Source of the DNA: Lysobacterales bacterium
GTDB taxonomy: Bacteria; Pseudomonadota; Gammaproteobacteria; Xanthomonadales; SZUA-38
Assembly: GCA_965212525.1 (NCBI GenBank)
Contig: CBDBVC010000013.1
Span: forward strand, 100,002-164,001
Length of the DNA: 64,000 bases
Direction of reading: 5' to 3'
Positions 9,702 through 40,290 of the stretch are shown in pieces. Under the pieces are notes generated by a model that ran no database searches, was not told the origin of the DNA, and worked only from the letters and a program-made list of their open reading frames with translations. Position 1 is the stretch's first letter; each line of letters opens with the position of its first letter. The translations under genes and the position numbers were made by a program.

Positions 9702-9838
9702 TGACTGCTCCTCTCCCTGGAAAAATGGCATGAATTTTTTCCAGTTCACTGGCATGATTCAACCACCAATCTCGCTATAGAGGGTATGCATTCGATGAAT
9801 GGATGCCATACTCAAACCAGGGACAAGGAAACGTAACC

Positions 9839-17674: not shown

Positions 17675-18060
17675 GATCTGCAATCGACTGCCATTCTGAT
17701 CTGATCACTGCCATACTGGCTGTGACGACTTGAAGCGGGTGTGCTGTGAATCAGAATCGGCACCGTTTGATCCAGACAGTGAGACCAGAGGCAACCCTTC
17801 AGGGTATCGCGGCCAGATGCCGGATACTCTGCATTGCAGGTCTCGCCATTGGAAGCGGTTGCCATGTCATTGACCACGGTTTCCCAATCGGCACGAAATG
17901 GATCATCCACCATGACAGTCTCCTCATCCGTATTGCATCTGACCATGTATCACGAACAGCGCCCCTCAGGCCAGTGACCCTGGAGTGTTCGATCAACTGA
18001 GGCTCATCTCTGTAGCACTATCTGCACGGTTTCCATGGGCTTTCGTGGTATAAAAACCCC

Positions 18061-19611
18061 ATGAAGACGTCCATCAGACCGCAGTTGCTGGCCCTGTTAC
18101 TGTTACTGCCACAGCTGCCCTTGCAGGCACAATCGTTTCTCTGGCCTGTGTCCACACCGGAAGCGGAGGGAATCGACCCTGCCGGGATCGAGGCTGCACT
18201 GACTGACATTGCCAGTGGGGAGTACGGCGATATCCGGTCGTTAATCATCATCAGGAACGGCAAGCTGGTCTCCGAAGATTATTTCCTCAATTCGGGTGTC
18301 AAGGCACCTGTGTATTCGGTCACCAAGAGCATCGGTTCAGCACTGCTCGGCATTGCTCAACACCGGGGTGCAGACATCGATGTACAGCGCTCGATGCTGT
18401 CCTACATGCCACAGTATGCAGACATTGCCGATTTCGACAGCAAGTCGGCCATTACCCTGGAAAACCTGCTGACCCAGCGGCACGGACTGGACTGGGATGA
18501 ATGGACCATCCAGTACGAACAGCCCGGCAATCCGGTGACCATCATGCTCAATACCACCGACTGGTACCGGACTGTTCTTGAATGGACAATGTCGACCCCG
18601 CCGGACACTGATTTTGCCTACAGTACCGGGGTCTCGTCACTGATGAGCGTGGTGCTGAACAACGTCACCGGCATGACACCATATCAGTTTGCCAGTGAAG
18701 CCCTGTTTGAACCGCTCGATATCACCGATACCCGCTGGGAACTGGTCGGTGCCAACGACACTGCCGGAACGGGCATCTCCGAATTCCCCGACAACCTGGA
18801 ACCACTGGGTTTCGGACTCTGGCTAAGGCCCTATGACATGGCCAAGATAGGCGAGCTGTTTCGCCTCGGTGGTGTCTGGCAGGGTCAGCGTCTGCTCAGT
18901 GAGTCCTGGGTGAAGGCATCAGTCCAGCCGCGCAATAACGGGGTCACCGATCCCGATATCTTTGCAAGCGCCAATTTTGGCTACGGCTATCAATGGTGGA
19001 CGCTGTCGTTCACCGATTCGCTGAACCGCATCTGGCATTCCTATTACGCCTCCGGATATGGACGTCAGTATATTTTCGTATTCCCTGAAGCCGATATGGT
19101 GATCGTCTCCACGGCCAAGGATTTTTTCTATGACGACGATGGCATCGGCTACCAGCTCAGAAACAATATTCTGCCGGCACTGGTCGATGGCCCACAGGGC
19201 TTCCAGGTCATGAACAGCGATCTGAATGGATCATGGTACTGGCCTGAAAACAGTGGTCAGGGTATCAACCTCGAGATCCTCAACGAGGGTACGGTGGCGC
19301 TGGCCTACTGGTATACCTATGACAATGACAACAGGCAGCGCTGGTTCATCATGCAGGGAGACATTGTCGACAACTCGGCCAGGCTGACGATCCGGTCAAC
19401 CGACAATGGTTCATTTGTCTACTCCGATCTACCCTACATTTCTGTGTGGGGGACAGGCGAACTGTTTTTCGACTCCTGCAACAGTGGCACCTTCCAGTTC
19501 ATTTCGGAGAGTGAAAACGTTTCGGGCGAAATTCCCCTGACACGACTGTCAGGTGGCGAGAACTGCGTCAATGCCGAGACTACCTCGGATCACCGCGCTT
19601 TTGTTCGATAA
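18061..19611 (+). CDS. secreted beta-lactamase-family serine hydrolase fused to the GSW(F/Y)xPExxGQG C-terminal domain, copy 3
   Basis: Signal peptide MKTSIRPQLLALLLLLPQLPLQA. SxxK (YSVTKSI). C-terminal roughly 135 aa (from about 19201): LNGSWYWPENSGQGINLE...YWYTYDNDNRQRWFIMQG...FDSCNSGTFQF...SGEIPLTRL. Confidence 0.85.
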   Translation: MKTSIRPQLLALLLLLPQLPLQAQSFLWPVSTPEAEGIDPAGIEAALTDIASGEYGDIRSLIIIRNGKLVSEDYFLNSGVKAPVYSVTKSIGSALLGIAQHRGADIDVQRSMLSYMPQYADIADFDSKSAITLENLLTQRHGLDWDEWTIQYEQPGNPVTIMLNTTDWYRTVLEWTMSTPPDTDFAYSTGVSSLMSVVLNNVTGMTPYQFASEALFEPLDITDTRWELVGANDTAGTGISEFPDNLEPLGFGLWLRPYDMAKIGELFRLGGVWQGQRLLSESWVKASVQPRNNGVTDPDIFASANFGYGYQWWTLSFTDSLNRIWHSYYASGYGRQYIFVFPEADMVIVSTAKDFFYDDDGIGYQLRNNILPALVDGPQGFQVMNSDLNGSWYWPENSGQGINLEILNEGTVALAYWYTYDNDNRQRWFIMQGDIVDNSARLTIRSTDNGSFVYSDLPYISVWGTGELFFDSCNSGTFQFISESENVSGEIPLTRLSGGENCVNAETTSDHRAFVR

Positions 19612-19623
19612 ACCCAGGTCAGA

Positions 19624-22368
19624 TCACTGGAGATTTTCGAGATAGGTTCTGGCCCTCATCAGGTGGCGGTCATTCTCTTGCCGTGAAGCGAGCACACTGA
19701 TCGCCTTCTCGAACAGACTTCCGGCTTCCTCTCGTCGATCCAGTGCTGCCAGACAATAGCCCAGCGCATAGCGCGCCTCGGCCAGGGCCCAGTGATTCTC
19801 ATCCAGCGACGAACGGATCTGCAATGCCTCCTGCAACATTGGCAACGCCTCATCCGCCTGCCCGAGCGCGGTCAGTGACTGACCCAGACCAACCAGAGAA
19901 TAAGCCAGATAGGGGTGACCGTCTGGGTGCAGCTTGCGACGCATTTCCAGTGACTGCCTGAACATCTCGGCAGATTCATCAAGGCGGCCCAGATCATACA
20001 GAACCGATGCCTGATTGCTGATCGTGGTGGCAACAGCCGGATGCTCCGCACCAAACCGTTGGATCAGACCGGCCAGTGCCTGTTGATAGAGCTTCTCAGC
20101 ATCCTCGTAGTCATGACCGGCCTGTCTGACCATGGCCAGATTATTGAGTCCACTCAAGACCTGGATATGATCCGATGGCAGGCTTCGCTGCCGGATTTCC
20201 AGTGCTTCGCCCAGATAGGTAGCAGACAATGCCGAGCGCCCGGTCTCATTCAATAACAGACCCAGGTTGGTCAGCACCTGGGCAAGGTCAGGGTGATCGG
20301 CATCAAGGATTCGTCGCCGAATCTCGAGAGATTCAGCATAGAGCTGTTCAGCCTCTTCCAGGCGTCCCTGAAAATACACCACCAGCCCCAGATTATTGAC
20401 CAGTGTTGCCGTGACCGGGCTGAATACCGGTGAAGATGATGACGAACTCTGACTCACATCCAGTGCCTTGCGTAATTCAATGGCTTCACGCAGCAGCGGC
20501 TCTACTTCGCTGTAATTACCCTCATTCAGTGCCACAGCCGCCATGTCATTGAGCGCACTGGCCAGCAGCCGTGTATTGTCGGCGTGGTGTCGCCTGACTC
20601 GTGTCAGTGAATCCTCTAGCATCGTTCTTGCTTCGTCCAGGTCACCCGTTTTCTGAAGCAGTCGACCGAGTTTACCCTGGATCCAGAGCGTCAGTTCAGT
20701 CTCGTCATCACCCGAGGCTATCGATGCTGCCAGGCCCTGTTCGAGCGTGACTTTAGCCTCATCATGCTGACCAATCAGCATCTGTGTTTCACCCAGATAA
20801 AACAGGCTCTGAGCCAGTTGTTGAGGCGAACGACTTCGATTGAGTTCGACCGCCTGTTGCAACAGTTCACTGGATCTGTCGTAAACACCAAGGCTTTGAT
20901 AGGTTCTTCCTAGCGTATCCAGCAATGGGGCCTGAACGGAGACATCATCACCCGATTCCTGCATGACTCGCTCAACGCCAGCATCGAGAATATCCCGGGC
21001 TGACAGTTCCCTGCCACGCGATTGTTCAGGGTCGACACTGGTAAACACCTCCACCAGCAGGCTCGAAATTCGTTCCGCACGATCACGTTGCTGCCCGGCA
21101 ACCCGTGCCTGGTTGAGCGCGTAGATGGCGAAACCCAGCACCAGTGAAGAAACCAGAGCGGTCGTCGCAACTACAAGTACGTTGCGCCTGATGAACTTGA
21201 GCAGCCGGGTCATCACTGGCGTGGGGCTCGCAAGGATGGGCCTGCCGCTGATCACCCGGTTGAGGTCATCCCTGAAGGAGGCAACATCGGCATACCGGTC
21301 TCGGGGATCGCTGGCCAGAGCCGTGGCAGTAACCACATCGAGATCATCGCGCAACAGCCTGATCAGTGTCGCTGTTTTCAGCCCTCGATTGGCGGCAACC
21401 TCATCTGCCTTCATTCGCTCCAGATGGGCGACACGCGAGCTTGGCGGTTCCATGCCGGCATCCTGGTTTTTCAGTGGCTCGGGCAGACAGGATGTCAGCT
21501 GCTGATACAACAGCACACCCAGTGAATAGACATCGATGGCCGTGGTCGGTGCATTGTCGCTGGCCTGTTCCGGCGCAGAAAAACCGGGAGAGCCCCAGCG
21601 TACTCCAGCCTGGGTGATAGTGTGGCCATGGTCATCGAGCAGACGGGCAATGCCAAAATCCAGCAGCTTTACGTCACCGTCTTCCGTTACCAGTATATTA
21701 CCGGGCTTCAGATCCCGATGAATCACCAGATTCTGGTGGGCATGCTGAACCGCATCGGCAACACGATCGACCAGTTGCAGGCGCTGCGTGATGCCGAGTC
21801 CGGCCTGGTCACAGTAGTCATCCAGCGGTAACCCTCGGATATACTCCATCACGAAATAGGGCCTGCCGTCTTCGGTGATACCGGCATCCAGCAACTGTGC
21901 AATATTGGGGTGAACCAGACGCGCCAGAACCTGTCGCTCATTATCGAATCGGGCGATTATTTCCGGGCGACTGATGTCCAGTGGCACCACTTTCAGGGCC
22001 ACCTGACGTTCGAAGGTTCCATCGTCACGTTCTGCCAGAAACACCGAACCCATGCCGCCTACGCCCAATACAGACACCAGCCTGTATGGCCCGATTCGTT
22101 TACCCACAGCCCAGGCCTCATCAACTTCGGCGGGCAATGAGGAACCAATATCGTCACTCAGGGATTCGAAGAAACCCTCAGCCTTTTCCTGACCCCGAAG
22201 CAGTTCCGCCAGCCGGTTGCCCAGATCAGGCTGACTGGCAATCAGTTCGGCCAGGAATTGCTCACGATCATCGGCACCCATCGACACTGCCTTTTCCAGC
22301 AGATCATGCAATGCCGGTTGTCCATGATGTTCGTCAGCTGACAATTGATTCTCCTCCCATTTCATCAT
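19624..22368 (-). CDS. Ser/Thr protein kinase with a TM helix and a long C-terminal TPR array
   Basis: GxGxxG (LGVGGMGSV), VALK, HRDLKPGNILV, DFGIARL and SAPEQ. A TM segment follows (VLVVATTALVSSLVLGFAIYAL), then about 450 aa of TPR-like repeats. The start is ambiguous (22398, 22368 or 22365) and overlaps the sigma-factor stop. Confidence 0.9.
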   Translation of the reverse strand: MMKWEENQLSADEHHGQPALHDLLEKAVSMGADDREQFLAELIASQPDLGNRLAELLRGQEKAEGFFESLSDDIGSSLPAEVDEAWAVGKRIGPYRLVSVLGVGGMGSVFLAERDDGTFERQVALKVVPLDISRPEIIARFDNERQVLARLVHPNIAQLLDAGITEDGRPYFVMEYIRGLPLDDYCDQAGLGITQRLQLVDRVADAVQHAHQNLVIHRDLKPGNILVTEDGDVKLLDFGIARLLDDHGHTITQAGVRWGSPGFSAPEQASDNAPTTAIDVYSLGVLLYQQLTSCLPEPLKNQDAGMEPPSSRVAHLERMKADEVAANRGLKTATLIRLLRDDLDVVTATALASDPRDRYADVASFRDDLNRVISGRPILASPTPVMTRLLKFIRRNVLVVATTALVSSLVLGFAIYALNQARVAGQQRDRAERISSLLVEVFTSVDPEQSRGRELSARDILDAGVERVMQESGDDVSVQAPLLDTLGRTYQSLGVYDRSSELLQQAVELNRSRSPQQLAQSLFYLGETQMLIGQHDEAKVTLEQGLAASIASGDDETELTLWIQGKLGRLLQKTGDLDEARTMLEDSLTRVRRHHADNTRLLASALNDMAAVALNEGNYSEVEPLLREAIELRKALDVSQSSSSSSPVFSPVTATLVNNLGLVVYFQGRLEEAEQLYAESLEIRRRILDADHPDLAQVLTNLGLLLNETGRSALSATYLGEALEIRQRSLPSDHIQVLSGLNNLAMVRQAGHDYEDAEKLYQQALAGLIQRFGAEHPAVATTISNQASVLYDLGRLDESAEMFRQSLEMRRKLHPDGHPYLAYSLVGLGQSLTALGQADEALPMLQEALQIRSSLDENHWALAEARYALGYCLAALDRREEAGSLFEKAISVLASRQENDRHLMRARTYLENLQ

Positions 22369-22942
22369 GCAGCCACAGACAGGCTGCCTGCCAGTCACGC
22401 TTCACCGTCGCCACCGAGATCTGCAATTGTCCGGCTATATCCTCCAGGCTCATGCCACCGAACACGCGGCAGATAATCACATCGGACCAGCGCTGCTTGT
22501 CGAGCGCCAGCTTCTCAAGTGCCGCATCCAGACTCAGCAGTTCCTCGCTGCGGCGCTCGGAGACCAGCAGCGATTCATCAATGCTCTGATGCGGATGATC
22601 ACCCTCGCGTTTCTGACGGTGGCGTCGCCGCGCATTGTCGATCAGGATGCTGCGCATGGCCATGGCGGCAATATGAATGAACTGGGAGCGATTGACCCAG
22701 TCGATGGTCGATTGCCGTTTCAGTTTCAAATAGCACTCATGGACGATACTGGTGGTCCCGAAGCGATCGCCGGGCTTCGAGTTGAGCCTGGCTGACCGGG
22801 CGATCATGCGCAGCTCCTGATAGAGCTCGGGCAGGAAACTGTCGAGGCTGGCCGAATCCAGATGCTGCAATGAAGGCGTCTGCAGTACGGTCTTGCGTAG
22901 CTTGAGATCCAGGTCCGTTTCGTTGGAATGCTCTGCTGGCAT
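22334..22942 (-). CDS. ECF-type RNA polymerase sigma factor (Sigma70_ECF / kinase-associated type)
   Basis: Region 2-like TSIVHECYLKL. Region 4 HTH MSLEDIAGQLQISVATVKRDWQAACLWL. The 3' end overlaps the kinase gene. Confidence 0.85.
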   Translation of the reverse strand: MPAEHSNETDLDLKLRKTVLQTPSLQHLDSASLDSFLPELYQELRMIARSARLNSKPGDRFGTTSIVHECYLKLKRQSTIDWVNRSQFIHIAAMAMRSILIDNARRRHRQKREGDHPHQSIDESLLVSERRSEELLSLDAALEKLALDKQRWSDVIICRVFGGMSLEDIAGQLQISVATVKRDWQAACLWLHDEMGGESIVS

Positions 22943-26722: not shown

Positions 26723-29700
26723 TCAAACCGTCTCCATCTGGTATTGCTTCGGCGACAGACCGTAACGGGCCTTGAAGCTCTGCGAGAAATGCGAGGGCGA
26801 ACTGAAACCGCACTCATCGGCTACGATACTGACCTGCTTGCCGTCGGTCAGAAATTCTGCTGCTTTCACCAATCGGTACTCACGCAGCAGTTCAGACGGG
26901 TTGTCATCGATCAGTGCCTTCAGCTTGCGTTGCAACTGGCGTTCACTGACGGCCAGCTTTGAAGCCAGCTCAGCCCGGCCAAACAGCGGGTTGTGGAAGT
27001 TGTCTTCAATGGCCTTGCGAATCTTGCTGACAAATGCCTGATCCCGCTTGTTGAGCTGAGTCGGCACTTCACCCTGAGACAACTGCTGTCCTGCCTGGCG
27101 CCTCAGTATGTCCCGGATACTCAGAATGTTGCGAATGCGCTGCTGCAACTCCTCGGCATCAAACGGCTTGGTCAGGTACTCGTCCACCTGTTCCTTCCAG
27201 CCCTGCATGCGCGAGTCCTTGTCGCCCCGTGCCGTCAGCAGAATGATCGGTATGTGCGATGTTCGATCGTCACTGCGGATCACCCTGGAGACCTGGAAGC
27301 CGTCCATCCCCGGCATCATCACATCAGACACGATCACATCGGGAATCTCCTTCAGGGCCGTCGCCACACCGTCCTGACCGTTGCCGGCCAGCAGACAGTG
27401 GTAACTGTCCTTCAGTGCCTCGTGAATGAAGGCCTGCATGTCCGGGTTGTCTTCGATGATCAGCACCGTTGCCCGATGTTCCGATCGCGGTGGTGCTAAC
27501 GGCGGCGCCACTTTCGGCTGCAGCTGGTTGATCTCGCTCAGCTGTTCCACCGTATCGCTGTCGATCTCGACGTCGTCTGCGGCTGCCTCTGCTGCCGGCA
27601 GTCGCACGCTGAAACGACTGCCGCGACCGGTCTCGCTGCTGGCCGAAATCTCGCCACCCTGGCTCTCGGCCATTTCCTTCACCAGCGCCAGACCTATGCC
27701 GCTGCCGATCTCGTTGCTGTGCTGTTCCAGACGCACAAAGCGCTCGAAGATCATCGACAGCTCCTTCTCGCTCAGGCCAGGTCCCGTATCGGTGACCGCA
27801 ATCTCGATCATGCTGTCGACAGACCGGTAACTGACCTCCACCTCACCGCCGGTGGGAGTGTACTTTATGGCGTTGGACAGCAGATTACCGGCGATGGTCT
27901 CGATGGTGTCGGGTGCCACACTGGCATGGCACTCCCCACCTGCATCAAGGCTCAGACGGATATGCTTGTCGTCGGCCATCGACTGGAACGAAGAGACCAC
28001 GAAACGGATGATGGTGGCGACGTTCTGCGACACTGCCTGTTGCGGGTCATTGCGATCCAGTCGCGCCATCTTCAGCAGCTGATCCACCAGCAGCAGCAGG
28101 CGGCGTGCATTGCGCAGAATCATCTTGTGCACCGATTTCTGTTTCGGATTCTCCGGTGCATTGACCAGCTTCTCCAGTGGCCCGAGGATCAGCGTTAGCG
28201 GTGTACGGAATTCATGCGAGACATTGGCAAACATCTGATTCTTGCGTGTCAGCAATGCTTCGATGGTGTCGCGCTGTTCTGCCACTTCGGTGGTTCGGAG
28301 TTTCACTTCCTGCTTCAGCTCGGCAGCACGCTGCTCGGCATTTCGCGTTCTGATGTGCACATAAAGCAGCGTCATGACAATGAACGCCAGCACATAGCCG
28401 GCGATGGCCCAGGGACTGAACCAGGGCGGCGGATAGACGCGAATGGACAGCGTTGCCTCATCCTCACTCCAGACGCCATCCTTGTTGGCAGCCCGCACAC
28501 GGAAGGTGTATCTGCCCGAAGGCAGGTTGGTGTAGGTGACGTGACGGTTGCTGGCATCCACTTCGGTCCAGTCGGGATCAAAGCCCTCCATCAGGTAACG
28601 GTAACGGTTGCTGCTGGGATCGGCATAATGCAGCCCGGCGAACTCGATGCCGAAGACGTAGTCCCGGTGTGACAGGTCCAGATGTGTCAGGCTCTCGATG
28701 GGGCCCGGCAGACTGAATCCATCCTCGGATGGGGTCTCGGACTGCCAGTCGTTGAAGCGGCTGAAACCGGTGAAGACAACACGAGGTGGCACCGTGTTGA
28801 TCTTGATCCTGTTCGGGATAGAAGGCGTTGAAGCCGCGACGACCACCGAAGTAAAGTTTGCCGGATGCCGACTGAAAACTCGAACCACGTGTAAAGACGT
28901 TACTCTGCAGGCCATCTCTGGCATCGAACCGTTTGATCTCACCAGAGTCGGGTTGTATCCGATACAGACCACGCGATGTCGAAACCCACAGTGCATTGTT
29001 CTCATCCATCTGCAATCCGGCGACGACACTGACAGGCTGTTCCTGATCACCCAATGGATACATTTGCTCGACCACAGCTGACATTTTCATTCTGGCCAGC
29101 CCACGTCGTTCAATTCCAGCCCAGATGGTATCGTTGTGTATCAACAACGAATCGACCGTAACGCCATGAATCGGTGAATCCGGAGCGGTCGCAAGAACGA
29201 GATGTCGTTCATCATCTTCACGCAGCAATCCTGCCGATGTGGCAAACCAGTAGGAGCCGTTTTTATCAGCAGAGGCTGCTATGAAACTTGCAGAATCTAT
29301 CCTCGAATCACCGGTGACAATCTGACTTGAAACCCCTTCATCAGCATCATAACGATACAGGCCAGAACGCGTTCCCAGCCAGTAAGCCCCCGTATCAATC
29401 GGTGCTGCAAAGTAGGTGATTTTTTCTGGAACCTGCCCCTCGAGTCGATCGATACTGGATGAATCCCGATTGATCCTGTTCAGCCCCTTTGCCGTCGAAA
29501 CCAGAATGTCACCCTGCGCATCTTCGATAATCGCGTTGACCTGTGGATGCGATAATCCCGATGTATCGGATTCAGTATCCACATGATGTCGGCAGAACGA
29601 GGTCATCTCATTGAATTCAACCAGGCCAGCTTCGGTCCCAATCCAGTTAATACCCTTACTGTCTTCAAACAGCGAATAGACCACTCTGGATGGCATGCAG

Positions 29701-30764
29701 GGCACACTGCCCGGCTGATCATCATGCTGTCCGAAGACCAGCGTGGACAAATCCAATCTGTTGATCCCTGCATTGAATGTACCAATCCACAGGCTTTCGG
29801 AATCTTCGTGAAACAGTGACAGCACCACATCGTCCTTGAGTGAATGCTCAGCTCCGGGGACATAGGTAAAATGCTGGATCTCACTCTGATTCTGAACACG
29901 AAACAAGCCCTCATCGAGCGTACCTACCCAGAGTACATTGTCATGACTCATTAACGAGATCGCATTGATCTGACCCAGTTCACGAATAGGTGATATTTCG
30001 GACGGGCTTGACCTGTCTGTCATGAACAGACCGATACTGGATGCAATCCAGATACTGCCTGAATCATCCTCGTGCAGATCCCGGACTGATATCCTGTCTG
30101 CGTAATCGCCCAGAGGAATCGACTCGAAAGACTGGTTTTCATCCTGACGATGGAACACACCAGAATTCCCGCCCAGCCAGACACCCTGATGATCAGATCT
30201 CAGAATTGACAGGACTGACACATCTTCGACTGACTCATCATCCACGAGTGTATGATGAGCCAGAACCAGACCACCGGTATCAATGATGACCAGACCCCGT
30301 TGAGTTCCGAGATATATTGTTCCCGCTGTGCCATGCTCAATGCTGTAGATAACGGGTGTCATCTGCTCACCATCTGAACCCAGGATTTCTACCTGGTGGA
30401 TTACATCGGCCTCGTGCACAAACAGCCCCCGGGCACCTGCAGCAATCCATAACTTGCCATCATCAGCCAGACTCAGACTGCGAATATCGGGAACGGGCTG
30501 ATTTGCTTCACGGTTGACAGTACCTGTCAGGGGAATGGTAGTGATTCGATAGCCATCGTAGCGCGCGAGTCCGGACCAGGTTGCAAACCACAGATAGCCG
30601 TCCTGGTCCTGTTCGATATCCCTGACAAGCGATCCTGGCAGGCCCTGATCAACCCACAGAGAATCAACACGCAGATTCATCCCATGAACGGCTGGGAGGA
30701 TCAGCAAAACACCAGAAATCAGAACAGCTAAGAAAGAAGGTTGCAGCAGGAGCGCACGTCTCAT
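26723..30764 (-). pseudogene. hybrid two-component system sensor/regulator (beta-propeller Reg_prop repeats, Y_Y_Y, TM, HisKA, HATPase_c, REC, AraC HTH), split by a frameshift near 28808
   Basis: The upstream ORF (30764-28578) holds the signal peptide plus propeller repeats (DQDGYLWFATWSGLARYDG...). The downstream ORF holds the Y_Y_Y region (NRYRYLMEGFDPDWT...GRYTFRVRA), a TM helix, the H-box SHEFRTPLT, an ATPase, REC (VLIIEDNPDM...DVMMPGMDG) and AraC HTH (GFSSPSHFSQSFKARYGLSPKQY). The frames join at FYPEQ|IKINTVPPRVVF if one nt is skipped. Confidence 0.85.
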
Positions 30765-30929: not shown

Positions 30930-31184
30930 TTAGCCGTTCAGTGGAACTTTGTATTCGACACAATCCACGGGTGTATGTTTGGGTCCCGCTGTCATCATGG
31001 TACCGCATGGTTGCCCAGCCAGAACGAGCCCGTACAGGTAAATCGTACCTTCTTTTACATCTTCATGAACACACTGTTCATATTGGATGATTGGTGGCTC
31101 AGCCGACGCTGATTCGAATCGTGTGAGCAACAGACCAGCAGCTAGAAGACCCGTCGTGAAAATGGCAATCTTTGCTTTGTTCAT
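30930..31184 (-). CDS. small secreted Cys-containing protein, unknown function
   Basis: 84 aa. Signal peptide MNKAKIAIFTTGLLAAGLLL...ASA. 3 Cys in the mature part. It lies 165 nt upstream of, and co-oriented with, the hybrid sensor gene. Confidence 0.6.
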   Translation of the reverse strand: MNKAKIAIFTTGLLAAGLLLTRFESASAEPPIIQYEQCVHEDVKEGTIYLYGLVLAGQPCGTMMTAGPKHTPVDCVEYKVPLNG

Positions 31185-31283
31185 ACTACATTTCCCTGTT
31201 CTGGATGAGATGGCGCAATCCTATTGATGGCATGACACAGCGTCAACCCAATGTCCTCAAAACTGATGATTCAGTCCCATAAA

Positions 31284-31326
31284 CTAAAGAAATTCGGTCA
31301 GCATGACTCAGGGAATGGACTGAATG
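31284..31326 (-). promoter_or_regulatory. copy P4 (weakest) of the TTCAGTCC...CTGA(G)TCA...TTTC upstream element
   Basis: The minus strand reads cATTCAGTCCattccCTGAgTCAtgctgaccgaaTTTCtttag, 100-140 nt upstream of ATG 31184. It shares the TTCAGTCC box with P1-P3. Confidence 0.35.
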
Positions 31327-31476
31327 CCCTGTAAATACTGGCCTTGCGGCTGCTGACCTGATTCGTATAGCAACCCTGATTCGCAAGACATCTTTGTCCG
31401 TTTCCAGATGGATCCAACGACCCAAACCATAAATTTACTGTCCCGGATGCCCATTTTCCTGGCTGAAATCAGGTGA

Positions 31477-31510
31477 TTTCTGTCCCCGATCTGATCACGT
31501 GTTTCAGGCC
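31477..31510 (+). promoter_or_regulatory. copy P1 of the conserved upstream element TTTCWGTCC-N7-GATCAC-N3-4-TTTCA
   Basis: TTTCTGTCCCCGATCTGATCACGTGTTTCAGGCC, 65-98 nt upstream of ATG 31575. 21 of the first 25 nt are identical to P2. A partial extra box TTTACTGTCCCGG lies at 31434-31446. Confidence 0.5.
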
Positions 31511-31574
31511 ATTCGATCGATGATGTTCTCACGGCACAACGGTGCTGATTTCATCAATCAACTGGAGAAACATC

Positions 31575-32270
31575 ATGACAAACTCAATCATCAGAAAGGT
31601 ACAGCAAATCACAGCCGCAGGCGCGCTTCTGACAGCGATTAATGTGGCCCAGGCAGAGACACCCGTGGAACTGCGCATGGACCCGAACTGGACTGAAGTA
31701 TCCACCAATGTGTTCAAGGCCGAATTGCCCAATGGAACGATCATGACTCACAGCTTTGGTATCGAAGGCATGCATGCGGCCATCGATGAACTGACTGAGC
31801 GCCAGGCCCAGACAGCAAGGAACGGCAATCAGAAGGCACTGGACGACCTGAACGCCCAGATCGATGACATTCGGGCAGAGCTGGCCGATGCCGAGCAGGC
31901 AGTTCAAACCAAATCGGGAATGGCGATGTACACCTGCGGGATCATGTGGAGCCTGTCCACCAACCATGGCTTCAGCAACCCCAGCTACTACAGCGTGTCA
32001 TCCACCGGAAACTACTACCCTGCAGGTGGTTTCGGCGGATTTGCGGTTGTCAGCGCATCAACAGTGAGCCAGGTGACTGGCACCAGTGGTCAGATGGTCA
32101 CCGACTACGATTTCTTCAGCAGCTTCGGCCACCCATCAGCACCGTTCATGCTCAACACGTTTGTCTCTACACCGACCTGGAGCGGCATGTGGTACAGCTC
32201 GGCGTCACTGAGCTACCGCGGAGCCCGATGCAATGCTTTCGAGTTCATCTCCCAGTCGGGCAACATCTGA
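31575..32270 (+). CDS. secreted protein of unknown family, island paralog A
   Basis: RBS ggagaaacatcATG. Signal peptide ...LLTAINVAQA. DPNWTEVSTNVF...SFGIEGM, then a coiled coil, then a Gly/Ser/Tyr-rich C-terminal half with conserved Cys. Collinear with the 39158-39907 protein. Confidence 0.8.
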   Translation: MTNSIIRKVQQITAAGALLTAINVAQAETPVELRMDPNWTEVSTNVFKAELPNGTIMTHSFGIEGMHAAIDELTERQAQTARNGNQKALDDLNAQIDDIRAELADAEQAVQTKSGMAMYTCGIMWSLSTNHGFSNPSYYSVSSTGNYYPAGGFGGFAVVSASTVSQVTGTSGQMVTDYDFFSSFGHPSAPFMLNTFVSTPTWSGMWYSSASLSYRGARCNAFEFISQSGNI

Positions 32271-32294
32271 TCTGCTGAAAGATCATCACACACA

Positions 32295-32322
32295 GCCCTG
32301 CCACCGTGGCGGGGCTTTTTTG
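32295..32322 (+). terminator. rho-independent terminator after paralog A
   Basis: GC-rich stem gccctgcc(ac)/(gt)ggcggggc (one G-U pair) followed by TTTTTT, 25 nt after the stop. Confidence 0.75.
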
Positions 32323-32386
32323 TGTCTGAATAAGCGGTGCTATAGTAGAGAAACGTCAATGCACTCTGTAATGATCGTTATCAGCC

Positions 32387-33718
32387 ATGATGCGAAAACT
32401 GATACCAATCTGTCTTCTATGCCCGTTCCTGGTTTCGGAGCTGACTCTGGCACAGCACCTGAATGATCAATCGGTTTACAACCAGATAGATACCATTCGA
32501 GCGATTTCATCCGGCCTGTCAATTGATGGCAACAATAGTGACTGGAATGGCATTCCCGACTATCCGGATCCGGTGGACGATGCATCAGGTGACCCCAGCC
32601 GCGACATCACCTCGGTATCACTGGCTCCGCGCGACGATGCCTGGTTGTTGCGCATCGAGACTGCAGGTACACCCTCACAACAGGATCTGGCCTTCTGGCT
32701 GTTCATTGATTACCGCAACCAGCAGGTGCTCGACCTGGAGCTTGGCCTGTACATTGGTTTTCCCGATGTACTCTGGCGCTATCCCGAAGGGGGTGACCCG
32801 GTGATGAGTAACTGGGACGAAACGATCACGGTCATTGGAAACGTGGTTGAGGCTCGTATCCCGCTGGATGCACTGGCACTGGAACTGCCCACAGACATGG
32901 CAGATGACCTGTCCGGCCCCGATGCCCGAAGCTGGGTCAGGATCATGCCGTTCACGCGTAATCTGCAGGGTGATATTGTTGACTATGGCGCAGCGGTGGC
33001 GTCCTATCGCCTCATCACCACGCCCTACCCGCTGGATCCGGCACTACCTGTGGTCCCGGGCAAGGATCCGCCCGATGCGGCCATCCCCATCCCAATGCCC
33101 ATGTCGGGCATGCAGTACGTGGATCAGGGTGCCGGCGGAATTTTTTCGCATTCGGATAAATGGGCCTACGACCTGAACCGGGTCAACAATGCCCTGCACC
33201 CGGATAGCCCGCACATGAGCGCTGACAATAGCGACTACTTTTCATTCGGTGAGGTGATTCGAGCGCCAGCATCTGGCTCGGTTTTTTCAACCGATAACAG
33301 CAATCCTGATCAGCCTCCCAGGCAGAACCCCTGTAACCCGACCGGGGTGAACTTCATGTTCCTCGACATTGGCAGTTCGGTTGGGCTGCTGTTCTCCCAC
33401 ACGCAGCAGGGAAGCATCCCGTTTTCACAGGGTAATGCCGTGAACGCCGGAGACAACATCGGTCTGGTGGGTCATTCCGGTTCCTGTTCCTGGCCGCACC
33501 TGCATCTGGAAGCACAGACCATCACCAGCGGATTCCCGTCAAGACCAATTGAATTGACCGATGTCGATGTGGGACTCAATCCGGCAGACACCGATCCCTG
33601 GCTGCGGCGAATGTCGTTGTGGGGCATCAGGGAAGGCTTCCTGGTCCGATCGGTGACCTGTGATGGCAACACGGTTTCTGTCTCGAACCACATCCATTGT
33701 GATGGTTTTGAAGACTGA
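32387..33718 (+). CDS. secreted protein with a C-terminal M23-type metallopeptidase-like domain
   Basis: Signal peptide MMRKLIPICLLCPFLVSELTLA. C-terminal GDNIGLVGHSGSCSWPHLHLEA (the HxH motif of M23 peptidases), with an upstream SHSDKWAYD as a possible H...D ligand pair. The N-terminal half is unassigned. Confidence 0.6.
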   Translation: MMRKLIPICLLCPFLVSELTLAQHLNDQSVYNQIDTIRAISSGLSIDGNNSDWNGIPDYPDPVDDASGDPSRDITSVSLAPRDDAWLLRIETAGTPSQQDLAFWLFIDYRNQQVLDLELGLYIGFPDVLWRYPEGGDPVMSNWDETITVIGNVVEARIPLDALALELPTDMADDLSGPDARSWVRIMPFTRNLQGDIVDYGAAVASYRLITTPYPLDPALPVVPGKDPPDAAIPIPMPMSGMQYVDQGAGGIFSHSDKWAYDLNRVNNALHPDSPHMSADNSDYFSFGEVIRAPASGSVFSTDNSNPDQPPRQNPCNPTGVNFMFLDIGSSVGLLFSHTQQGSIPFSQGNAVNAGDNIGLVGHSGSCSWPHLHLEAQTITSGFPSRPIELTDVDVGLNPADTDPWLRRMSLWGIREGFLVRSVTCDGNTVSVSNHIHCDGFED

Positions 33719-33815
33719 GAGTTTTCGATAACAAACTAACCACCAGCAACGTCAGATATCCCCAGTCGCAGTGTTTTTATCCATGCTGATATTGATCATG
33801 GCCTGTATTCGAATG

Positions 33816-33858
33816 TTTCAGTCCCGAATCTGATCACGGCTATTACAGGTTTCAGCCC
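33816..33858 (+). promoter_or_regulatory. copy P2 of the conserved upstream element
   Basis: TTTCAGTCCCGAATCTGATCACGGCTATTACAGGTTTCAGCCC, 90-132 nt upstream of ATG 33948. The RBS-start context ggagaaacatcATGa is identical to that of paralog A. Confidence 0.5.
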
Positions 33859-33947
33859 AGAATCTCCTCTACCGAATGTACGGCACGTCAGAGTCCTAAA
33901 AACGATGCCGTCAACCCGGAACCACCACACTAATGAGGAGAAACATC

Positions 33948-36056
33948 ATGAAAACCCAATCACTCATGCTGCTCTGGTGCCTTACCAGTACAGCACTGAT
34001 GGCGGCACCACCCACCGTCGATATCGCCAGTGTACAGAGTCTGTCCGATCAGCCAGTCCTGGTGGCCAGTGCCATGATTGCAGAGGATACCAAATCAACT
34101 ACCAGGACCATTGACGAGGCATCGCTGATGGCGGCATTCGACAATCACCCCGACCTGGTCTATGCCACCCCGATGGCCGTTGATGCGACGGACTTCAAAT
34201 CACTGCAGCATTACGGCTCCTATCTGATCGAGCTGGCGGATGGAAACATCATCGAGGTGATTGCCGAGCGCAAGAAGACTGTCATGGATCGCATGCTGTT
34301 TGTCAGCGGGCCCATCGCCGGTTTTGAAGACGAACAGATCGCCCGTGCCACGGTGGCCTTCACCGATGAGGGCATGATCGCAGATCTGCAATTGCCTGAT
34401 GGTCAGTACCAGATCCGTTCTGTCGCCGGCATGAACTGGCTGTTCGACCCTGAGGCGCTCGCCAATATGGATAACATGGGAACACTGATCGGCGATCAGC
34501 CTGCCCTCCATCTGGGTCACGATCCTGAGATCGGTCATCAGCACGGCAATGCCTCTACCAAATCAACCTTTACGACACTCAATGTGGCACTGGTACTGAG
34601 CAAGACTCACGGCACCAATGCAAGCGGTATATCATCAGCACTGTACAGGCTGGAACTCGCCAATGATGAACTGGAGCGCACAGGGGTCAATCTGCGGTAC
34701 AACCCGACCCTGGTGACTCGGGTCAAACCGTCACGCGACAACCAGCTCAATAATCGTTCAGACATTACAGCTCAGAACTTTAGCGCTTCCGGTACCAGCT
34801 GGCTCGATCTGAATTTTTCGGGTTTGCAGACCAGTCCGTCAAATCTCAGCAGTGTTCACATCAATCAGTATGTCCTGCTGATTGGCCCAGGTTCTGACAC
34901 CTTGTGTGGTGCCACCGTGACAGCACCCAACCAGACCGGACGATACAGTGTGGTTCGGGCAAATGGCTGTACCGACCCCTGGACGATGGCCCACGAACTT
35001 GGCCATAACCTGAGTTGTGTGCACGAGGATGGCGCGATCAAACCGTTCAATCTGTTTGGTGATCCTGCTCTTCCCGCAGTCTGGAAGAGTGTCATGACAA
35101 CAGGCTATTCTGCTCAAGCCGTGCCGCGCCAGTTCAAGATCTTCTTCACAGCCGGCAATGACAGCCCGACGAGCATGCTTTGTGGCGGTTTCTGTAACAC
35201 CTTCCCTGCTGCCGCACACGATTGTGCCGGCAAGATGGAAGCAGTGGCCCCAGGCATGGCCAACCAGTTTGATGTAATCAATCTGCCGGCAGCCAGTATC
35301 CCGCCCGATGCCTTCGAGGTAGACGATACGGCCAGTCTGGCCAGCGATTATCTCGGTGTCGCGCAGAATCACAACTTTCACGACAACGGTGATTCCGACT
35401 GGATACGCTACTACAGCACACCGGCCCAGATCAGCATTCGCACCACCAACCTGGGCCCCAACGCCGACACCTGCATGAGACTTTACCGTTCAAATTCAAC
35501 GGCCACGGGCACCTCTGGCGGCATCATCGCCTCCAACTGTGATGGTGGGCCTGGCCAATCCTCGGTCATCAACTTTACCCAGAATGACGAATGGGTGTAT
35601 TACATACGAGTCTATTCTCAGAATAGCAATGTCTCAGGTCAGGGCACCAATTACACCTTCAGCCTGACAGCGACACCGCTGTCGTCGACACCGGATGCCT
35701 GGGAAGTGGATGATACGGCCAGCCAGGCTTCATCCTATCTGGGATCACCACAGGCACACGACTTCCATGATGCCGGTGATGTGGACTGGATTCTCTATTA
35801 CGCCCCTGCAGGCTTCAGAACGATCACGGCCACCGCCATTGGCAGTAATTCAGATCCCTGTATTCGTCTGTATCGATCTAACAGTACAGCCACAGGCACA
35901 TCGGGCGGCATTATCGCGTCCAACTGCGATGGCGGGCCTGGTCAATCAGCACGAATCGTGTTCAACCAGCCCGATGATTTCGTTTATTTCGTCAGAGTTC
36001 ATCACCAGACGAATGGCTTTGGAGCCAACACCCAGTATTCATTGAGTGTTCAATAA
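33948..36056 (+). CDS. secreted zinc metalloprotease (metzincin/reprolysin-like HExxHxxxxxH) with two tandem PPC-like C-terminal domains
   Basis: Signal peptide MKTQSLMLLWCLTSTALMA. Active-site motif MAHELGHNLSCVHEDG. Two roughly 125-aa C-terminal repeats start at PDAFEVDDTAS and PDAWEVDDTAS. Confidence 0.8.
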   Translation: MKTQSLMLLWCLTSTALMAAPPTVDIASVQSLSDQPVLVASAMIAEDTKSTTRTIDEASLMAAFDNHPDLVYATPMAVDATDFKSLQHYGSYLIELADGNIIEVIAERKKTVMDRMLFVSGPIAGFEDEQIARATVAFTDEGMIADLQLPDGQYQIRSVAGMNWLFDPEALANMDNMGTLIGDQPALHLGHDPEIGHQHGNASTKSTFTTLNVALVLSKTHGTNASGISSALYRLELANDELERTGVNLRYNPTLVTRVKPSRDNQLNNRSDITAQNFSASGTSWLDLNFSGLQTSPSNLSSVHINQYVLLIGPGSDTLCGATVTAPNQTGRYSVVRANGCTDPWTMAHELGHNLSCVHEDGAIKPFNLFGDPALPAVWKSVMTTGYSAQAVPRQFKIFFTAGNDSPTSMLCGGFCNTFPAAAHDCAGKMEAVAPGMANQFDVINLPAASIPPDAFEVDDTASLASDYLGVAQNHNFHDNGDSDWIRYYSTPAQISIRTTNLGPNADTCMRLYRSNSTATGTSGGIIASNCDGGPGQSSVINFTQNDEWVYYIRVYSQNSNVSGQGTNYTFSLTATPLSSTPDAWEVDDTASQASSYLGSPQAHDFHDAGDVDWILYYAPAGFRTITATAIGSNSDPCIRLYRSNSTATGTSGGIIASNCDGGPGQSARIVFNQPDDFVYFVRVHHQTNGFGANTQYSLSVQ
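35304..36053 (+). repeat. intragenic tandem duplication: two PPC-like domains (about 35304-35690 and 35691-36053)
   Basis: The two domains align along their full length. A 28-aa block RLYRSNSTATGTSGGIIASNCDGGPGQS is identical (nt 35478-35561 vs 35865-35948), although 17 of the 28 codons differ synonymously. Confidence 0.85.
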
Positions 36057-38102: not shown

Positions 38103-39074
38103 TTGGCCAGATGGCTTCATATTGCAGGATGGTCGTCGCTGACGATCATCCTGTTGTGGTTCAGTCATGCACCGGATTCCGGACAGAGAGGAATCACTGA
38201 GCCCAGGCGGCCTGATGCGTTGACCCAGCCTGAAGCAGCTGTTCCTGCTGAGTCTCAGAATACGAATGCGTCATTACAGTCGCCACGACTCAAGGTGATC
38301 GACAGAGCCGGCCCGATTGTCAGTTACATTGACACCGAACCGGATGGTGCAATTCAGACACAAGCTGACGGAAGCCTGATTCGGAATCGGGAACTGAGAC
38401 GATTGTTCGATTATTTTCTGTCCGCAATGGGCGAACTGGAACTGGATGAGATCCGCACCGAACTGATTGCATTTATCGATCGATCGGGAAACAGCCATCT
38501 GTTACCTGACATTCTGGATGCATTTGATGATTACCAGCAGTATCTGCTGGCACTTGAATCGTTTTCGCTCTCTCTGGATCCCGATCTCAAACTGGCCGAT
38601 CGTCTCGAGCTGCTGTCCAAATTTCGCCGTCAGACACTCGGCGAGACACTGGCTGCTGACTATTTTGCAGACGAGGAAGCCTATGCCCGTTACAGGCTGG
38701 CCAAGTCAGGGCGTACGGTTGATCTTCAGCCGGAGGAGAGTGAGCAGGAACGCTGGCAGAGGGTCGAGGACCTGGCCATGGGTCATCAGACCGTGATTGA
38801 TGAAACCCGTGATTTCGAGCAGGAACAGATGAACGCTGCTGCCCGGTTCAGCATTCGCAGCCAGCAATACGGGGACGCTGCCGCAATTCGTCTTGCCGAA
38901 CTGGATCAGTCACGTTCGGAATTCAATGACATGGTTTCTCACTATATTGATCAGCGCAGACACATCGAGAAGTCAGGTAATGATCGAATGGTGCTGAAGC
39001 AACTTCATGCCCGCTACACAGCGCACGAGCTGAAGCGTTTACAGGTCTACTGGCAAGCTCACAAGAATGGGTAG
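38103..39074 (+). CDS. lif: lipase-specific foldase (Lif chaperone)
   Basis: Immediately follows the lipA stop. N-terminal TM anchor. Contains the Lif signature RxxFDY(F/C)L(S/T)A as RRLFDYFLSA. The start codon is uncertain (TTG 38103). Confidence 0.9.
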   Translation: MARWLHIAGWSSLTIILLWFSHAPDSGQRGITEPRRPDALTQPEAAVPAESQNTNASLQSPRLKVIDRAGPIVSYIDTEPDGAIQTQADGSLIRNRELRRLFDYFLSAMGELELDEIRTELIAFIDRSGNSHLLPDILDAFDDYQQYLLALESFSLSLDPDLKLADRLELLSKFRRQTLGETLAADYFADEEAYARYRLAKSGRTVDLQPEESEQERWQRVEDLAMGHQTVIDETRDFEQEQMNAAARFSIRSQQYGDAAAIRLAELDQSRSEFNDMVSHYIDQRRHIEKSGNDRMVLKQLHARYTAHELKRLQVYWQAHKNG

Positions 39075-39157: not shown

Positions 39158-39907
39158 TTATTGAAATGCAGGGGAATTGCAGGCAGCGCTATTATTGTAA
39201 TACATCGTCTCAGAACATTGATTACCGAACGGCAATACACTCACATAACCCCAGGATGAGGCCCAGCACTGGAAGGTGGGCGCTATTGTTGCCAGCGAGT
39301 CGGCACGAATCAGAAAGCCACTACCGATGGCTTGCCCATAGTCATAATCTGAACCGACAACGGGTGACGTAATGTACGTGTTGCTTTCTACAAGTTTTTC
39401 ACCGGGCGACAAGGGGCCGAACTCATCGTATTGCGCGCTCATCGAGACAAAGGGCTGTGCAAAGGTGAACCAGCCGTAAGTTGTCTCGAAGCGTGCATTA
39501 CCCGAACACAACTTTGTGGGTGGATCAGATTTCTGCATCGCCTGATTGAGCTCGACCAGTTGCATCTCAAGATCCAGCAGCCTCAGTTCCTCACGGGCGC
39601 TGAGCAATTTGGTTTCGGATTGCGCAGTAAGCACATCGATGGATTCCTGAACCCGATTTGCTGCCAGGCGCATTGCGGCATTGCCAAACGCAATTGTGGT
39701 TATTGTGTCGCCGTCTCGCTGAAACACATCCTGATCTATCGCGACCCATTCCGGATCCAGTTCCAGTTCAGCCGGACCAGAGACACTGAAAGTAGTCTTG
39801 TGAGTCGTATTCAGTGCCCACTCTGGATCAACCTCAGGGTTCTTTTCAGCCATGACGGAAGTGGCCATGGAACAGGCAATGGCTAATGCAGTTAATTTGG
39901 TTTTCAT
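39158..39907 (-). CDS. secreted protein of unknown family, island paralog B
   Basis: RBS gaggaattaaagATG. Signal peptide MKTKLTALAIACSMATSVMA. DPEWVAIDQDVF...AFGNAAM, then a coiled coil, then a Cys-containing C-terminal half. Same architecture as 31575-32270. Confidence 0.8.
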   Translation of the reverse strand: MKTKLTALAIACSMATSVMAEKNPEVDPEWALNTTHKTTFSVSGPAELELDPEWVAIDQDVFQRDGDTITTIAFGNAAMRLAANRVQESIDVLTAQSETKLLSAREELRLLDLEMQLVELNQAMQKSDPPTKLCSGNARFETTYGWFTFAQPFVSMSAQYDEFGPLSPGEKLVESNTYITSPVVGSDYDYGQAIGSGFLIRADSLATIAPTFQCWASSWGYVSVLPFGNQCSETMYYNNSAACNSPAFQ

Positions 39908-40044: not shown

Positions 40045-40080
40045 TATTGTGAAATCCGGTGATCGATTAGAGGACAGAAA
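40045..40080 (-). promoter_or_regulatory. copy P3 of the conserved upstream element
   Basis: The minus strand reads TTTCTGTCCTCTAATCGATCACCGGATTTCACAATACC, 138-173 nt upstream of ATG 39907. 18 of the first 25 nt are identical to P1, including TTTCTGTCC and GATCAC. Confidence 0.45.
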
Positions 40081-40290
40081 GTATTGTTGTCAGGACAAAT
40101 CGCAGTTGGCCAGCGATTCCTTAACCTGGAATTCCTGTTTTATTAACAAAATCAGCAACTAAGCCGCCTGGTTTTCCATCAGGTTGGCCCTGGACATACT
40201 TGTCAGATTTGCCTTTCTGGCACGATACTCTCGTATACTCAAGGCGCGTTTTGGCGTGTCGCCTGAACAGATTGAGAACAGCTACTCGGA

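Follow-up and report, generated by a model that had tools for sequence, protein, structure and literature searches.

Sites of the AraC/XylS family of transcription factors include AraC I1 (TAGC-N7-TCCATA), SoxS (GCAC-N7-TAAA) and Rob (GCAC-N7-CAA); SoxS, MarA and Rob sites share the form GCAC-N7-(T/C)AA(A), and the XylS site is TGCA-N6-GGNTA, repeated (PMC4514859). For the hybrid two-component regulators of Bacteroides, the predicted operators are direct repeats spaced about 21 bp, both on the same face of the DNA (PMC3878776, Ravcheev et al. 2013). The receiver domain of such hybrid regulators carries a SHIP motif, and a substitution there relieves autoinhibition (PMC11253607). In the window (the whole 64-kb stretch of bacterial DNA that was analysed) an element present in three copies, P1 to P3, is a real and new cis-regulatory motif of a known kind. 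It is probably a transcription-factor site. The full explanation that we favour is a cis-regulatory site common to three promoters, whose factor would be the adjacent hybrid regulator; we put its probability at roughly 0.45.

The shared element and its copies

TTTCWGTCC-N7-GATCAC matches exactly three times, with no mismatches, in the whole 64 kb (31477-31498 and 33816-33837 on the plus strand, 40080-40059 on the minus strand), and allowing up to two mismatches adds no further match in the window. At the latter tolerance 0.33 matches are expected from shuffled sequence and three were reached in 0 of 100 shuffles. A position weight matrix built from P1-P3 scores its own sites at 32.6-35.8 bits and the runner-up in the window at 15.9 bits, having been trained on the same three sites that it scores. 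GATCAC occurs 76 times on the two strands of the window; three of the four exact 5′ boxes have it at the same offset, for which the chance is about 1e-9 given the window's own word frequencies. The P1 main site reads TTTCTGTCC-CCGATCT-GATCAC (31477..31498, plus strand; 35.8 bits), with GATCAC 77 nt before the ATG of paralog A. P2 reads TTTCAGTCC-CGAATCT-GATCAC (33816..33837, plus; 34.2 bits) and sits 111 nt before the ATG of a gene for a metzincin-like protease, and P3 reads TTTCTGTCC-TCTAATC-GATCAC (40059..40080, minus; 32.6 bits), 152 nt before the ATG of paralog B. Measured from the first base of the motif the distances are 98, 132 and 173 nt. Every copy is intergenic and in the same orientation as its gene, and all three genes encode secreted proteins. 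GTCC-N7-GATCAC is invariant in all three copies, the spacer is variable, and the site is asymmetric and not palindromic. With the downstream TTTCA included, P1 lies at 31477-31508 (plus), P2 at 33816-33858 (plus) and P3 at 40080-40045 (minus), and the sequences quoted in the initial annotation are borne out. Its figure of 21 identical positions in 25 for P1 and P2 becomes 20 by count, while that of 18 in 25 for P1 and P3 stands. The likeness of P1 and P2 around the ribosome-binding site and start codon (GGAGAAACATCATGA) is also confirmed, at 17 of 18 positions.

Paralog A (31575..32270, plus) is a secreted protein of 231 aa without a Pfam family, and its gene is followed by a terminator at 32294-32316. 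Paralog B (39158..39907, minus), also secreted, has 249 aa and is 25% identical to paralog A. The metzincin-like secreted protease (33948..36056, plus) carries a PPC domain; its Pfam matches are weak, and no homolog was found among 5.8 billion sequences. The database search returned no homolog of paralog B and one of paralog A (P0002, 44% identity). The AlphaFold model sought as a guide to the function of paralogs A and B was poor (pLDDT 60, pTM 0.45), and Foldseek gave only generic, uninformative beta-sandwich matches (TM about 0.3).

Weaker copies of the 5′ box, lacking GATCAC, are found 42, 42 and 21 bp upstream of the main sites of P1, P2 and P3, and are in helical phase with them. The P1 auxiliary box TTACTGTCCCGGAT (31435..31448, plus) is the extra box noticed earlier near 31434, and it is indeed identical to the main site (TTTCTGTCCCCGAT) at 12 of 14 positions. 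An additional box, TTTGTCC, lies at 31393..31399 (plus), 86 bp upstream of the P1 main GTCC. At P2 the auxiliary box is TTTTTATCC (7/9; 33774..33782, plus), exactly 42 bp from the main site as in P1; at P3 it is TTTGTCC (40093..40099, minus), with its GTCC exactly 21 bp upstream of the main GTCC. On the downstream side, TTTCA belongs to a 5′-box-like 9-mer matching at 8 of 9 positions both in P1 (TTTCAGGCC, 31502..31510, plus, 25 bp after the main box) and in P2 (TTTCAGCCC, 33850..33858, plus, 34 bp after it); in P3 TTTCA stands alone. Because TTTCWG is a common hexamer across the window, this downstream TTTCA is the weakest part of the element. The half-site model put forward earlier, with TTTCAG-like units 25-34 bp apart, describes the data less well than a bipartite main site with auxiliary 5′ boxes at 21 or 42 bp.

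The intergenic region 31185-31574 (390 bp) holds five 5′-box matches at one mismatch or fewer, the mean per 390-nt segment being 0.27. Segments of this length with at least three matches start only within 31101-31451 and 33501-33651, the P1/P4 and P2 regions. P4 (31326-31284, minus) had been described as a fourth, weaker copy of the motif. It yields no full match at two or fewer mismatches and is absent among the top matrix matches; only its 5′ box survives: ATTCAGTCC (31317..31325, minus), which matches at 8 of 9 positions, lacks GATCAC and is part of the real box cluster. This remnant points at the gene for a small secreted 3-Cys protein (30930..31184, minus), located between the regulator gene and P1, with a sigma-70-like promoter at 31246-31218 and a terminator at 30830-30802. 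An identical ATTCAGTCC on the opposite strand (31269..31277, plus) forms an inverted pair with P4, with 39 bp between the arms. The 10-mer ATCTGATCAC, whose recurrence had also been noted, is no copy of the element. Its position is 17699-17708 in place of the 17698-17707 given earlier, a 5′ box is lacking, and a twin occurs within coding DNA at 17412-17421 (minus).

Promoter, RNA and duplication readings

The -35 and -10 elements of sigma-70-family promoters are spaced by 16-18 bp, ECF promoters typically have AAC and CGT, and the sigma-54 promoter has the form GG-N10-GC (TGGCAC-N5-TTGCW). Since the invariant blocks of the motif are 7 bp apart, it is incompatible with both -35/-10 and -24/-12 readings. 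An ECF or sigma-70 core promoter was rejected on this spacing and because the three copies share no additional block at constant spacing. The sigma-54 pattern is absent from the motif; P1 offers only GGCAC with N9 to GC, and P2 and P3 offer nothing similar. Overall, spacing or sequence ruled out reading the motif as an ECF or sigma-54 promoter, a CRP/FNR or LysR site, or a Pho box. Neither a promoter scanner nor our own matrix found a sigma-70 -35/-10 pair on the P1-P3 strands that was consistent across the three. CTGACA-16-TCTAAT at P3, which overlaps the motif, was discarded as a promoter; its -10 hexamer is without the essential A at the second position, and it has no counterpart at P1 or P2. 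Putative -10-like hexamers, picked by eye and post hoc, are GATGAT at P1 (31519..31524, plus) and CAGAAT at P2 (33858-33863, plus), each 20 nt after GATCAC, and CAGAAT at P3 (40039-40034, minus), 19 nt after it. Promoter scanners did not pick up these hexamers.

It is improbable that an alternative sigma factor uses the motif itself as its core promoter. The idea is suggested by the undetectable sigma-70 promoter at P1-P3 and by a nearby candidate, an ECF43-like sigma factor (PF07638; 22334-22942) with GTTS replacing the DAED motif, whose gene is paired with that of a Ser/Thr TPR kinase (19624-22398); both are 8 kb away. CGTCAGA also occurs 16 nt after GATCAC, in P3 only. Our literature search found no published promoter motif for ECF43 sigma factors. 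The 7 bp between the invariant blocks, however, fit neither the 16-18 bp of the sigma-70 family nor GG-N10-GC. The gap to TTTCA varies (3, 12 and 4 nt), CGTC is confined to P3, and the AAC and CGT signatures are absent. The DNA upstream of the sigma factor's own gene has no motif, and the related locus L001, considered below, keeps the linkage of regulator and target with no ECF sigma factor gene nearby.

All copies share the orientation of their genes and lie 98-173 nt before the start codons, and could thus be transcribed. This speaks for an element acting in RNA (a leader, a riboswitch or a small-RNA target in the 5′ untranslated region), but the window gives 0 Rfam matches, and the three leaders show neither a conserved structure nor covariation, with just 2 predicted pairs at -0.17 kcal/mol. 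REP-like repeats have many genomic copies, are palindromic, sit mostly at gene 3′ ends and are unrelated to the neighbouring genes. In the 64 kb the motif has only three copies, is not palindromic or flanked by repeats, and is always 5′ of a gene, never at a gene 3′ end. A scan of 185,579 genomes returned 31 single matches, all from unrelated taxa; the downstream TTTCA accompanied none of them, and no homolog of the cluster genes was close to any. The JGI metagenome scan returned three single matches, two inside ORFs and the third at locus L034, none of them near a homolog of the cluster genes. These single genome and metagenome matches are due to chance. Judged from the 64 kb and these collections, both the RNA element and a dispersed REP-like or mobile repeat are very unlikely.

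Paralogs A and B are only 25% identical as proteins, yet the P1 and P3 sites match at 17 of 22 positions. The upstream likeness of P1 and P2 is patchy, with short blocks between unalignable DNA and indels. On these two grounds we consider the element to be under selection and not left over from a duplication. A functionless remnant of a duplicated promoter and leader cassette would account for the paralogy of genes A and B, for the ACGGCAC that follows TTTCAG by 30 nt in both P1 and P2, and for their ribosome-binding site and start codon match given above. At the divergence of A and B, however, neutral upstream DNA should have been randomised, the identity of P1 and P2 is restricted to short blocks, and the metzincin-like protease is unrelated to either paralog. 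A remnant of this kind is very improbable.

The candidate regulator

The candidate regulator (26723..30764, minus) is a hybrid two-component system with Reg_prop, Y_Y_Y, HisKA, HATPase, REC (with the SHIP motif) and AraC HTH regions. The initial annotation had noted an AraC HTH in this adjacent sensor, and Pfam confirms the full hybrid architecture, with matches on both halves of the protein; the H-box, the receiver Asp and the SHIP motif are all present. The motif-bearing targets lie 0.7-9.3 kb from its gene. The reading frame is not intact in this assembly. One extra base near 28808 splits the gene into ORFs 28578-30764 and 26723-29050. The regulator may be inactive here, or the frameshift may be a sequencing error.

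An intact ortholog of 1373 aa, 50% identical, is encoded in L001, the only relative found. The sequence of genes, from regulator through small Cys protein(s) to paralog-A homolog (44% identical), is kept there. Because this linkage is preserved, the adjacent regulator is favoured as the factor. Phylogenetic footprinting, proposed earlier as a check, did not recover the motif: L001 has no match at three or fewer mismatches and no matrix match, and its upstream DNA gave no alignment above shuffled controls. The two regulators have the same first recognition helix (VSERQLQRK) but different second ones. Upstream of its linked genes, L001 has 4 WGTCC pentamers where 0.83 would be expected (P = 0.012); WGTCC enrichments of this kind are modest, with P about 0.01, and came to notice post hoc. 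GATCAC is absent. As far as sequence can tell, this pattern of helices and pentamers fits one half-site being conserved and the other changed.

A real operator or activator site whose factor is encoded elsewhere in the genome, either of the AraC family or a winged-helix response regulator, is on balance unlikely. The main site can be read as imperfect direct repeats 11 bp apart, CTGTCC-N5-CTGATC (CWGTCC ... YYGATC), and direct repeats at 11-bp spacing are the layout of OmpR/PhoB-type regulators. This repeat match is weak, however, at 4 of 6 positions in P1 and fewer in P3, and the window encodes no OmpR-type regulator. The Pho box recognised by PhoB is CTGTCAT-N4-CTGTCAT. The motif resembles it in containing CTGTC and in being readable as 11-bp-spaced repeats upstream of secreted-enzyme genes; it differs in that only 10 of 18 consensus positions match, the second repeat is CTGATC or TCGATC and not CTGTCA, and the window holds no PhoB-type regulator. 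A distant factor gains some weight from the frameshift in the adjacent regulator, from a second AraC regulator in the window (13508-14353) and from our view of the genome covering only 64 kb. Against this, the linkage in L001 favours the adjacent regulator.

The hybrid regulator thus appears to be the best candidate for the cognate factor of P1-P3, at a little under even odds judged from sequence features. The earlier proposal of an AraC-type site with the adjacent hybrid sensor as its regulator holds as the best-supported reading; the tie to the regulator is the part that we infer, and the gene is frameshifted. In this scheme one transcription factor would control paralog A, the metzincin-like protease and paralog B through the shared site. 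Each promoter would present one strong asymmetric bipartite site, TTTCWGTCC (core GTCC), a 7-bp spacer and GATCAC, with the two cores one helical turn apart so that both HTH units of one AraC/XylS-type domain could bind. Which HTH unit reads which box we assume by analogy with MarA. The weaker 5′-box copies upstream (42, 42 and 21 bp) and downstream in P1 and P2 could receive the second protomer of a dimer. Phosphorylation of the receiver domain would release the AraC domain of the hybrid regulator, which would then bind the P1-P3 sites and activate promoters that have no recognisable -35 box. What the sequence shows directly is the three sites with their statistical weight, orientation and geometry, the clustering of 5′ boxes and the conserved linkage of regulator and target; we infer protein binding, the identity of the binder, activation in preference to repression, and the position of the transcription start.

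Comparison with known systems

AraC/XylS sites are asymmetric and have two blocks around a variable spacer of 6-7 bp, and GTCC-N7-GATCAC has this arrangement as 4-N7-6. The resemblance extends to the overall length of about 17-22 bp with 6-7 non-conserved bases between short blocks, to the blocks being one helical turn apart centre to centre, to the fixed orientation relative to the gene, and to the extra copies upstream in helical phase. Unlike the arrangement, the box sequences GTCC and GATCAC match none of the consensus sites listed at the outset. In the AraC/XylS family, the site nearest an activator-dependent promoter abuts or overlaps its -35 region.

Relative to the Bacteroides hybrid regulators, the candidate has the same domain architecture and SHIP motif, its targets adjoin the regulator gene, and the auxiliary boxes at 21 or 42 bp may be compared with the predicted 21-bp repeats. 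The repeats here are unequal, one strong site with weak 5′ boxes, whereas the predicted Bacteroides operators have two equal sites of 14-16 bp. From its gene content the host appears proteobacterial, and its regulator gene has a frameshift. In place of SusC/SusD or glycan-degrading enzymes, the targets comprise a protease and secreted proteins of unknown function, and the 64-kb window contains no SusC/SusD genes. To our knowledge, regulators of this hybrid type control glycan-utilisation loci and not protease genes. It is possible, if doubtful, that a hybrid two-component regulator outside Bacteroidota here has its operator defined for the first time, the regulator being a proteobacterial member of the family that has moved from glycan utilisation to controlling a small regulon, a secreted protease and orphan proteins. 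The site in that equally tentative case would be GTCC-N7-GATCAC with auxiliary boxes phased at 21 bp. Dam methylation might then also affect binding, since GATC is invariant in all main sites. Were the link to the regulator right, the motif would provide an uncharacterised type of regulator, met here outside its usual phylum, with an operator that can be tested, and the three orphan secreted proteins would form one co-regulated unit, a first handle on their function. No new mechanism is involved. The shared motif belongs to the everyday biology of regulons, here in a bacterium that has been little sampled, and a shared activator site before neighbouring genes is the standard architecture of bacterial regulons.

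Three motif copies and their distribution

The 22-bp motif TTTCWGTCC-N7-GATCAC occurs upstream of three genes. P1 (31477-31508, + strand) precedes paralog A (31575-32270), encoding a 231-aa secreted protein without a Pfam family; P2 (33816-33858, +) precedes a metzincin-like protease (33948-36056; 702 aa, secreted, with a PPC domain); and P3 (40080-40045, - strand) precedes paralog B (39158-39907, -; a 249-aa secreted protein). Re-reading confirmed all three sequences in the initial annotation; the identity of P1 and P2, put there at 21/25, is 20/25 on recount. The 64-kb window contains three matches at zero mismatches and no more at up to two, where dinucleotide shuffles predict 0.33 (three were reached in 0 of 100 shuffles). 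A weight matrix, trained on the same three copies that it scored, gave them 32.6-35.8 bits; the next best site in the window scored 15.9 bits. GATC and GATCAC are themselves 2 to 2.5-fold in excess in the window (493 against 244 and 76 against 31 expected from base composition, respectively). Using the window's own word frequencies, the occurrence of GATCAC (the 3′ box) at the same offset in three of four exact 5′ boxes (TTTCWGTCC) has P ~1e-9. We judge the three-copy motif to be a real, statistically solid cis-regulatory element.

The fourth exact 5′ box, TTTCTGTCC at 38415, falls inside the coding sequence of a lipase chaperone and lacks a 3′ box. It precedes by 9 nt (18 nt start to start) one copy of a perfect 15-nt inverted match, GAACTGGAACTGGAT (38433-38447, +, and 39755-39769, -). 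Both copies are coding, one in the lipase chaperone gene and the other in paralog B, and each encodes ELELD, so this match is probably a codon-repeat coincidence. Two further proposed copies did not hold. P4, described as a weaker copy before a small Cys-protein gene (31326-31284, -), matches only in its 5′ box ATTCAGTCC at 31325-31317 (8/9). ATCTGATCAC, located at 17699-17708 and originally quoted one base off, is not a copy because it lacks the 5′ box and has a twin in coding DNA at 17412. Scans of a genome collection and a metagenome collection, both without the source genome, returned 31 and 3 single matches respectively, consistent with chance.

Paralogs A and B share only 25% protein identity, yet P1 and P3 match at 17/22 positions, which argues that the element is under selection. 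The P1 and P2 genes encode unrelated proteins, and their upstream likeness is confined to short blocks (the 22-mer, TTTCAGSCC, ACGGCAC 30 nt after TTTCAG, and GGAGAAACATCATGA) separated by indels and unalignable DNA, the pattern expected of functional elements and not of a recent copy. The shared start context noted earlier was upheld: GGAGAAACATCATGA is 17/18 identical between 31564-31581 and 33937-33954. In paralog A and the unrelated protease gene it covers the ribosome-binding site, start codon and second codon. The sharing of GGAGAAACATCATGA and ACGGCAC hints at a common leader or translation-initiation module.

An M23 peptidase gene (32387-33718) that separates paralog A from the protease comes after a strong terminator (32294-32316) and lacks the motif. 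On the opposite strand upstream of P1, the gene for an 84-aa secreted protein with three Cys (30930-31184) carries a sigma-70-like promoter and a terminator of its own. For paralog A, structure prediction gave a poor model (pLDDT 60) and the fold search returned generic matches, pointing to no function. Elsewhere, three separate PF00144 (serine beta-lactamase/penicillin-binding-protein-like) genes lie within 15 kb (5324-6829, 16688-17674 and 18061-19611).

Architecture of the site

The invariant parts are GTCC, with TTTCW before it, and GATCAC; the spacer is seven variable bases, and the centres of GTCC and GATCAC are ~11 bp apart, one helical turn. With a gap of 7 bp, the blocks can be neither a sigma-54 -24/-12 pair nor a -35/-10 pair, for which 16-18 bp is required. 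The GATCAC-to-TTTCA gap is 3, 12 and 4 nt in P1, P2 and P3, and no third block at a fixed distance is common to them. An Rfam search of the window gave no match, and no conserved RNA fold was found among the three copies. As to the dispersed-repeat alternative raised in the initial annotation, the element lacks palindromic symmetry, does not sit at gene 3′ ends and is limited to three copies in the 64-kb window. Its asymmetric 4-N7-6 shape equals that of published AraC/XylS-family sites (AraC TAGC-N7-TCCATA, SoxS GCAC-N7-TAAA, Rob GCAC-N7-CAA; PMC4514859). The likeliest function of the motif, predicted from sequence, is to bind an AraC-type activator. Promoter scanners found no sigma-70 promoter on the gene strands of P1-P3, which fits dependence on an activator. 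Hexamers resembling a -10 element, picked post hoc by eye, follow GATCAC by 20 nt (GATGAT, P1), 20 nt (CAGAAT, P2) and 19 nt (CAGAAT, P3); these would put the motif at about -55 to -34.

The whole window holds 46 sequences within one mismatch of the 5′ box (24 expected). Five of them fall in the 390-bp intergenic region between divergent genes (31185-31574), at 31269 (+), 31325 (-), 31435 (+), 31477 (+) and 31502 (+), and three more are found around P2; 390-nt segments with at least three copies start only within 31101-31451 and 33501-33651. Identical ATTCAGTCC 9-mers at 31269-31277 (+) and 31317-31325 (-), the latter being P4, are inverted relative to each other and separated by 39 bp; both lie between the small Cys-protein gene and paralog A. 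An extra box had been noted near 31434; it is present at 31435 (+) as TTACTGTCC, exactly 42 bp upstream of the P1 main box. The P2 auxiliary box, TTTTTATCC, is likewise exactly 42 bp upstream of its main box, and at P3 the GTCC of an auxiliary TTTGTCC is exactly 21 bp upstream, distances of four and two helical turns. Outside the defining sites, the three upstream regions hold seven gene-strand WGTCC (1.8 expected, P=0.008).

Candidate regulators

Upstream of P1 on the opposite strand lies the hybrid two-component regulator gene (26723-30764, -), which encodes Reg_prop, Y_Y_Y, HisKA, HATPase, REC and, as initially annotated, AraC helix-turn-helix domains. Its reading frame is broken into two overlapping ORFs; when aligned with an intact ortholog, the gene shows one inserted base near G28808 ('gaa cag G atc aag', 28803-28816). 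The H-box, receiver aspartate and SHIP motif, the last typical of these receiver domains (PMC11253607), are all intact, which suggests that the insertion is either a sequencing error or a lesion (pseudogene) of very recent origin.

That ortholog (50% identical) sits on L001, an ENA metagenome contig and the only relative found, where it is followed by several tandem small Cys-protein genes, a 65-aa peptide gene and a paralog-A homolog (44%); no ECF sigma factor lies near this locus. There the gene for the small 3-Cys secreted protein has expanded to 3-4 tandem units of ~405 bp (L001 8008-9400), and the 65-aa secreted peptide, which is Cys-rich, is encoded directly before the paralog-A homolog (9729-9926). 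Conservation of the full motif upstream of orthologs was not borne out in this one distant relative. The AraC domains are 55% identical, with an identical first recognition helix (VSERQLQRK) and an altered second (SPSHFSQSFK vs SPSHFAHVFK). WGTCC occurs four times upstream of the linked L001 genes (0.83 expected, P=0.012, modest statistics). Together these would fit retention of one half-site and change of the other, the assignment of helices to boxes being one we presume by analogy with the MarA-DNA complex.

An ECF43-like sigma factor (22334-22942; PF07638, with GTTS where canonical ECF sigma factors carry DAED; PMC8999054) is a rival as the motif's factor. It lies directly upstream of a 924-aa TPR Ser/Thr kinase (19624-22398; pair 19624-22942, -), and in pairs of this type the sigma factor becomes active when the kinase phosphorylates it. 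The region upstream of its own gene, however, lacks the motif, and the 7-bp gap is a further argument against it. Another rival within the window is a second AraC regulator (13508-14353), and a factor encoded outside the window may bind the motif. The neighbouring hybrid regulator is probably the activator and is the best candidate on sequence grounds, being the nearest DNA-binding protein, having an AraC domain, keeping its linkage to the paralog-A homolog in L001, and showing there the kept first helix, altered second helix and WGTCC enrichment.

As a cis-regulatory element the motif belongs to a familiar kind, of which it is a new example. Some added interest comes from how little hybrid regulators of this type have been characterised outside Bacteroidota. 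The products of the putative regulon are secreted proteins, a protease among them. The phasing of the auxiliary boxes further favours the hybrid regulator: for Bacteroides regulators of this type, comparative genomics predicts direct repeats on a single DNA face with a spacing of ~21 bp (PMC3878776), which the 21 and 42 bp distances found here match, although the auxiliary boxes are weaker than the main sites and lack GATCAC.
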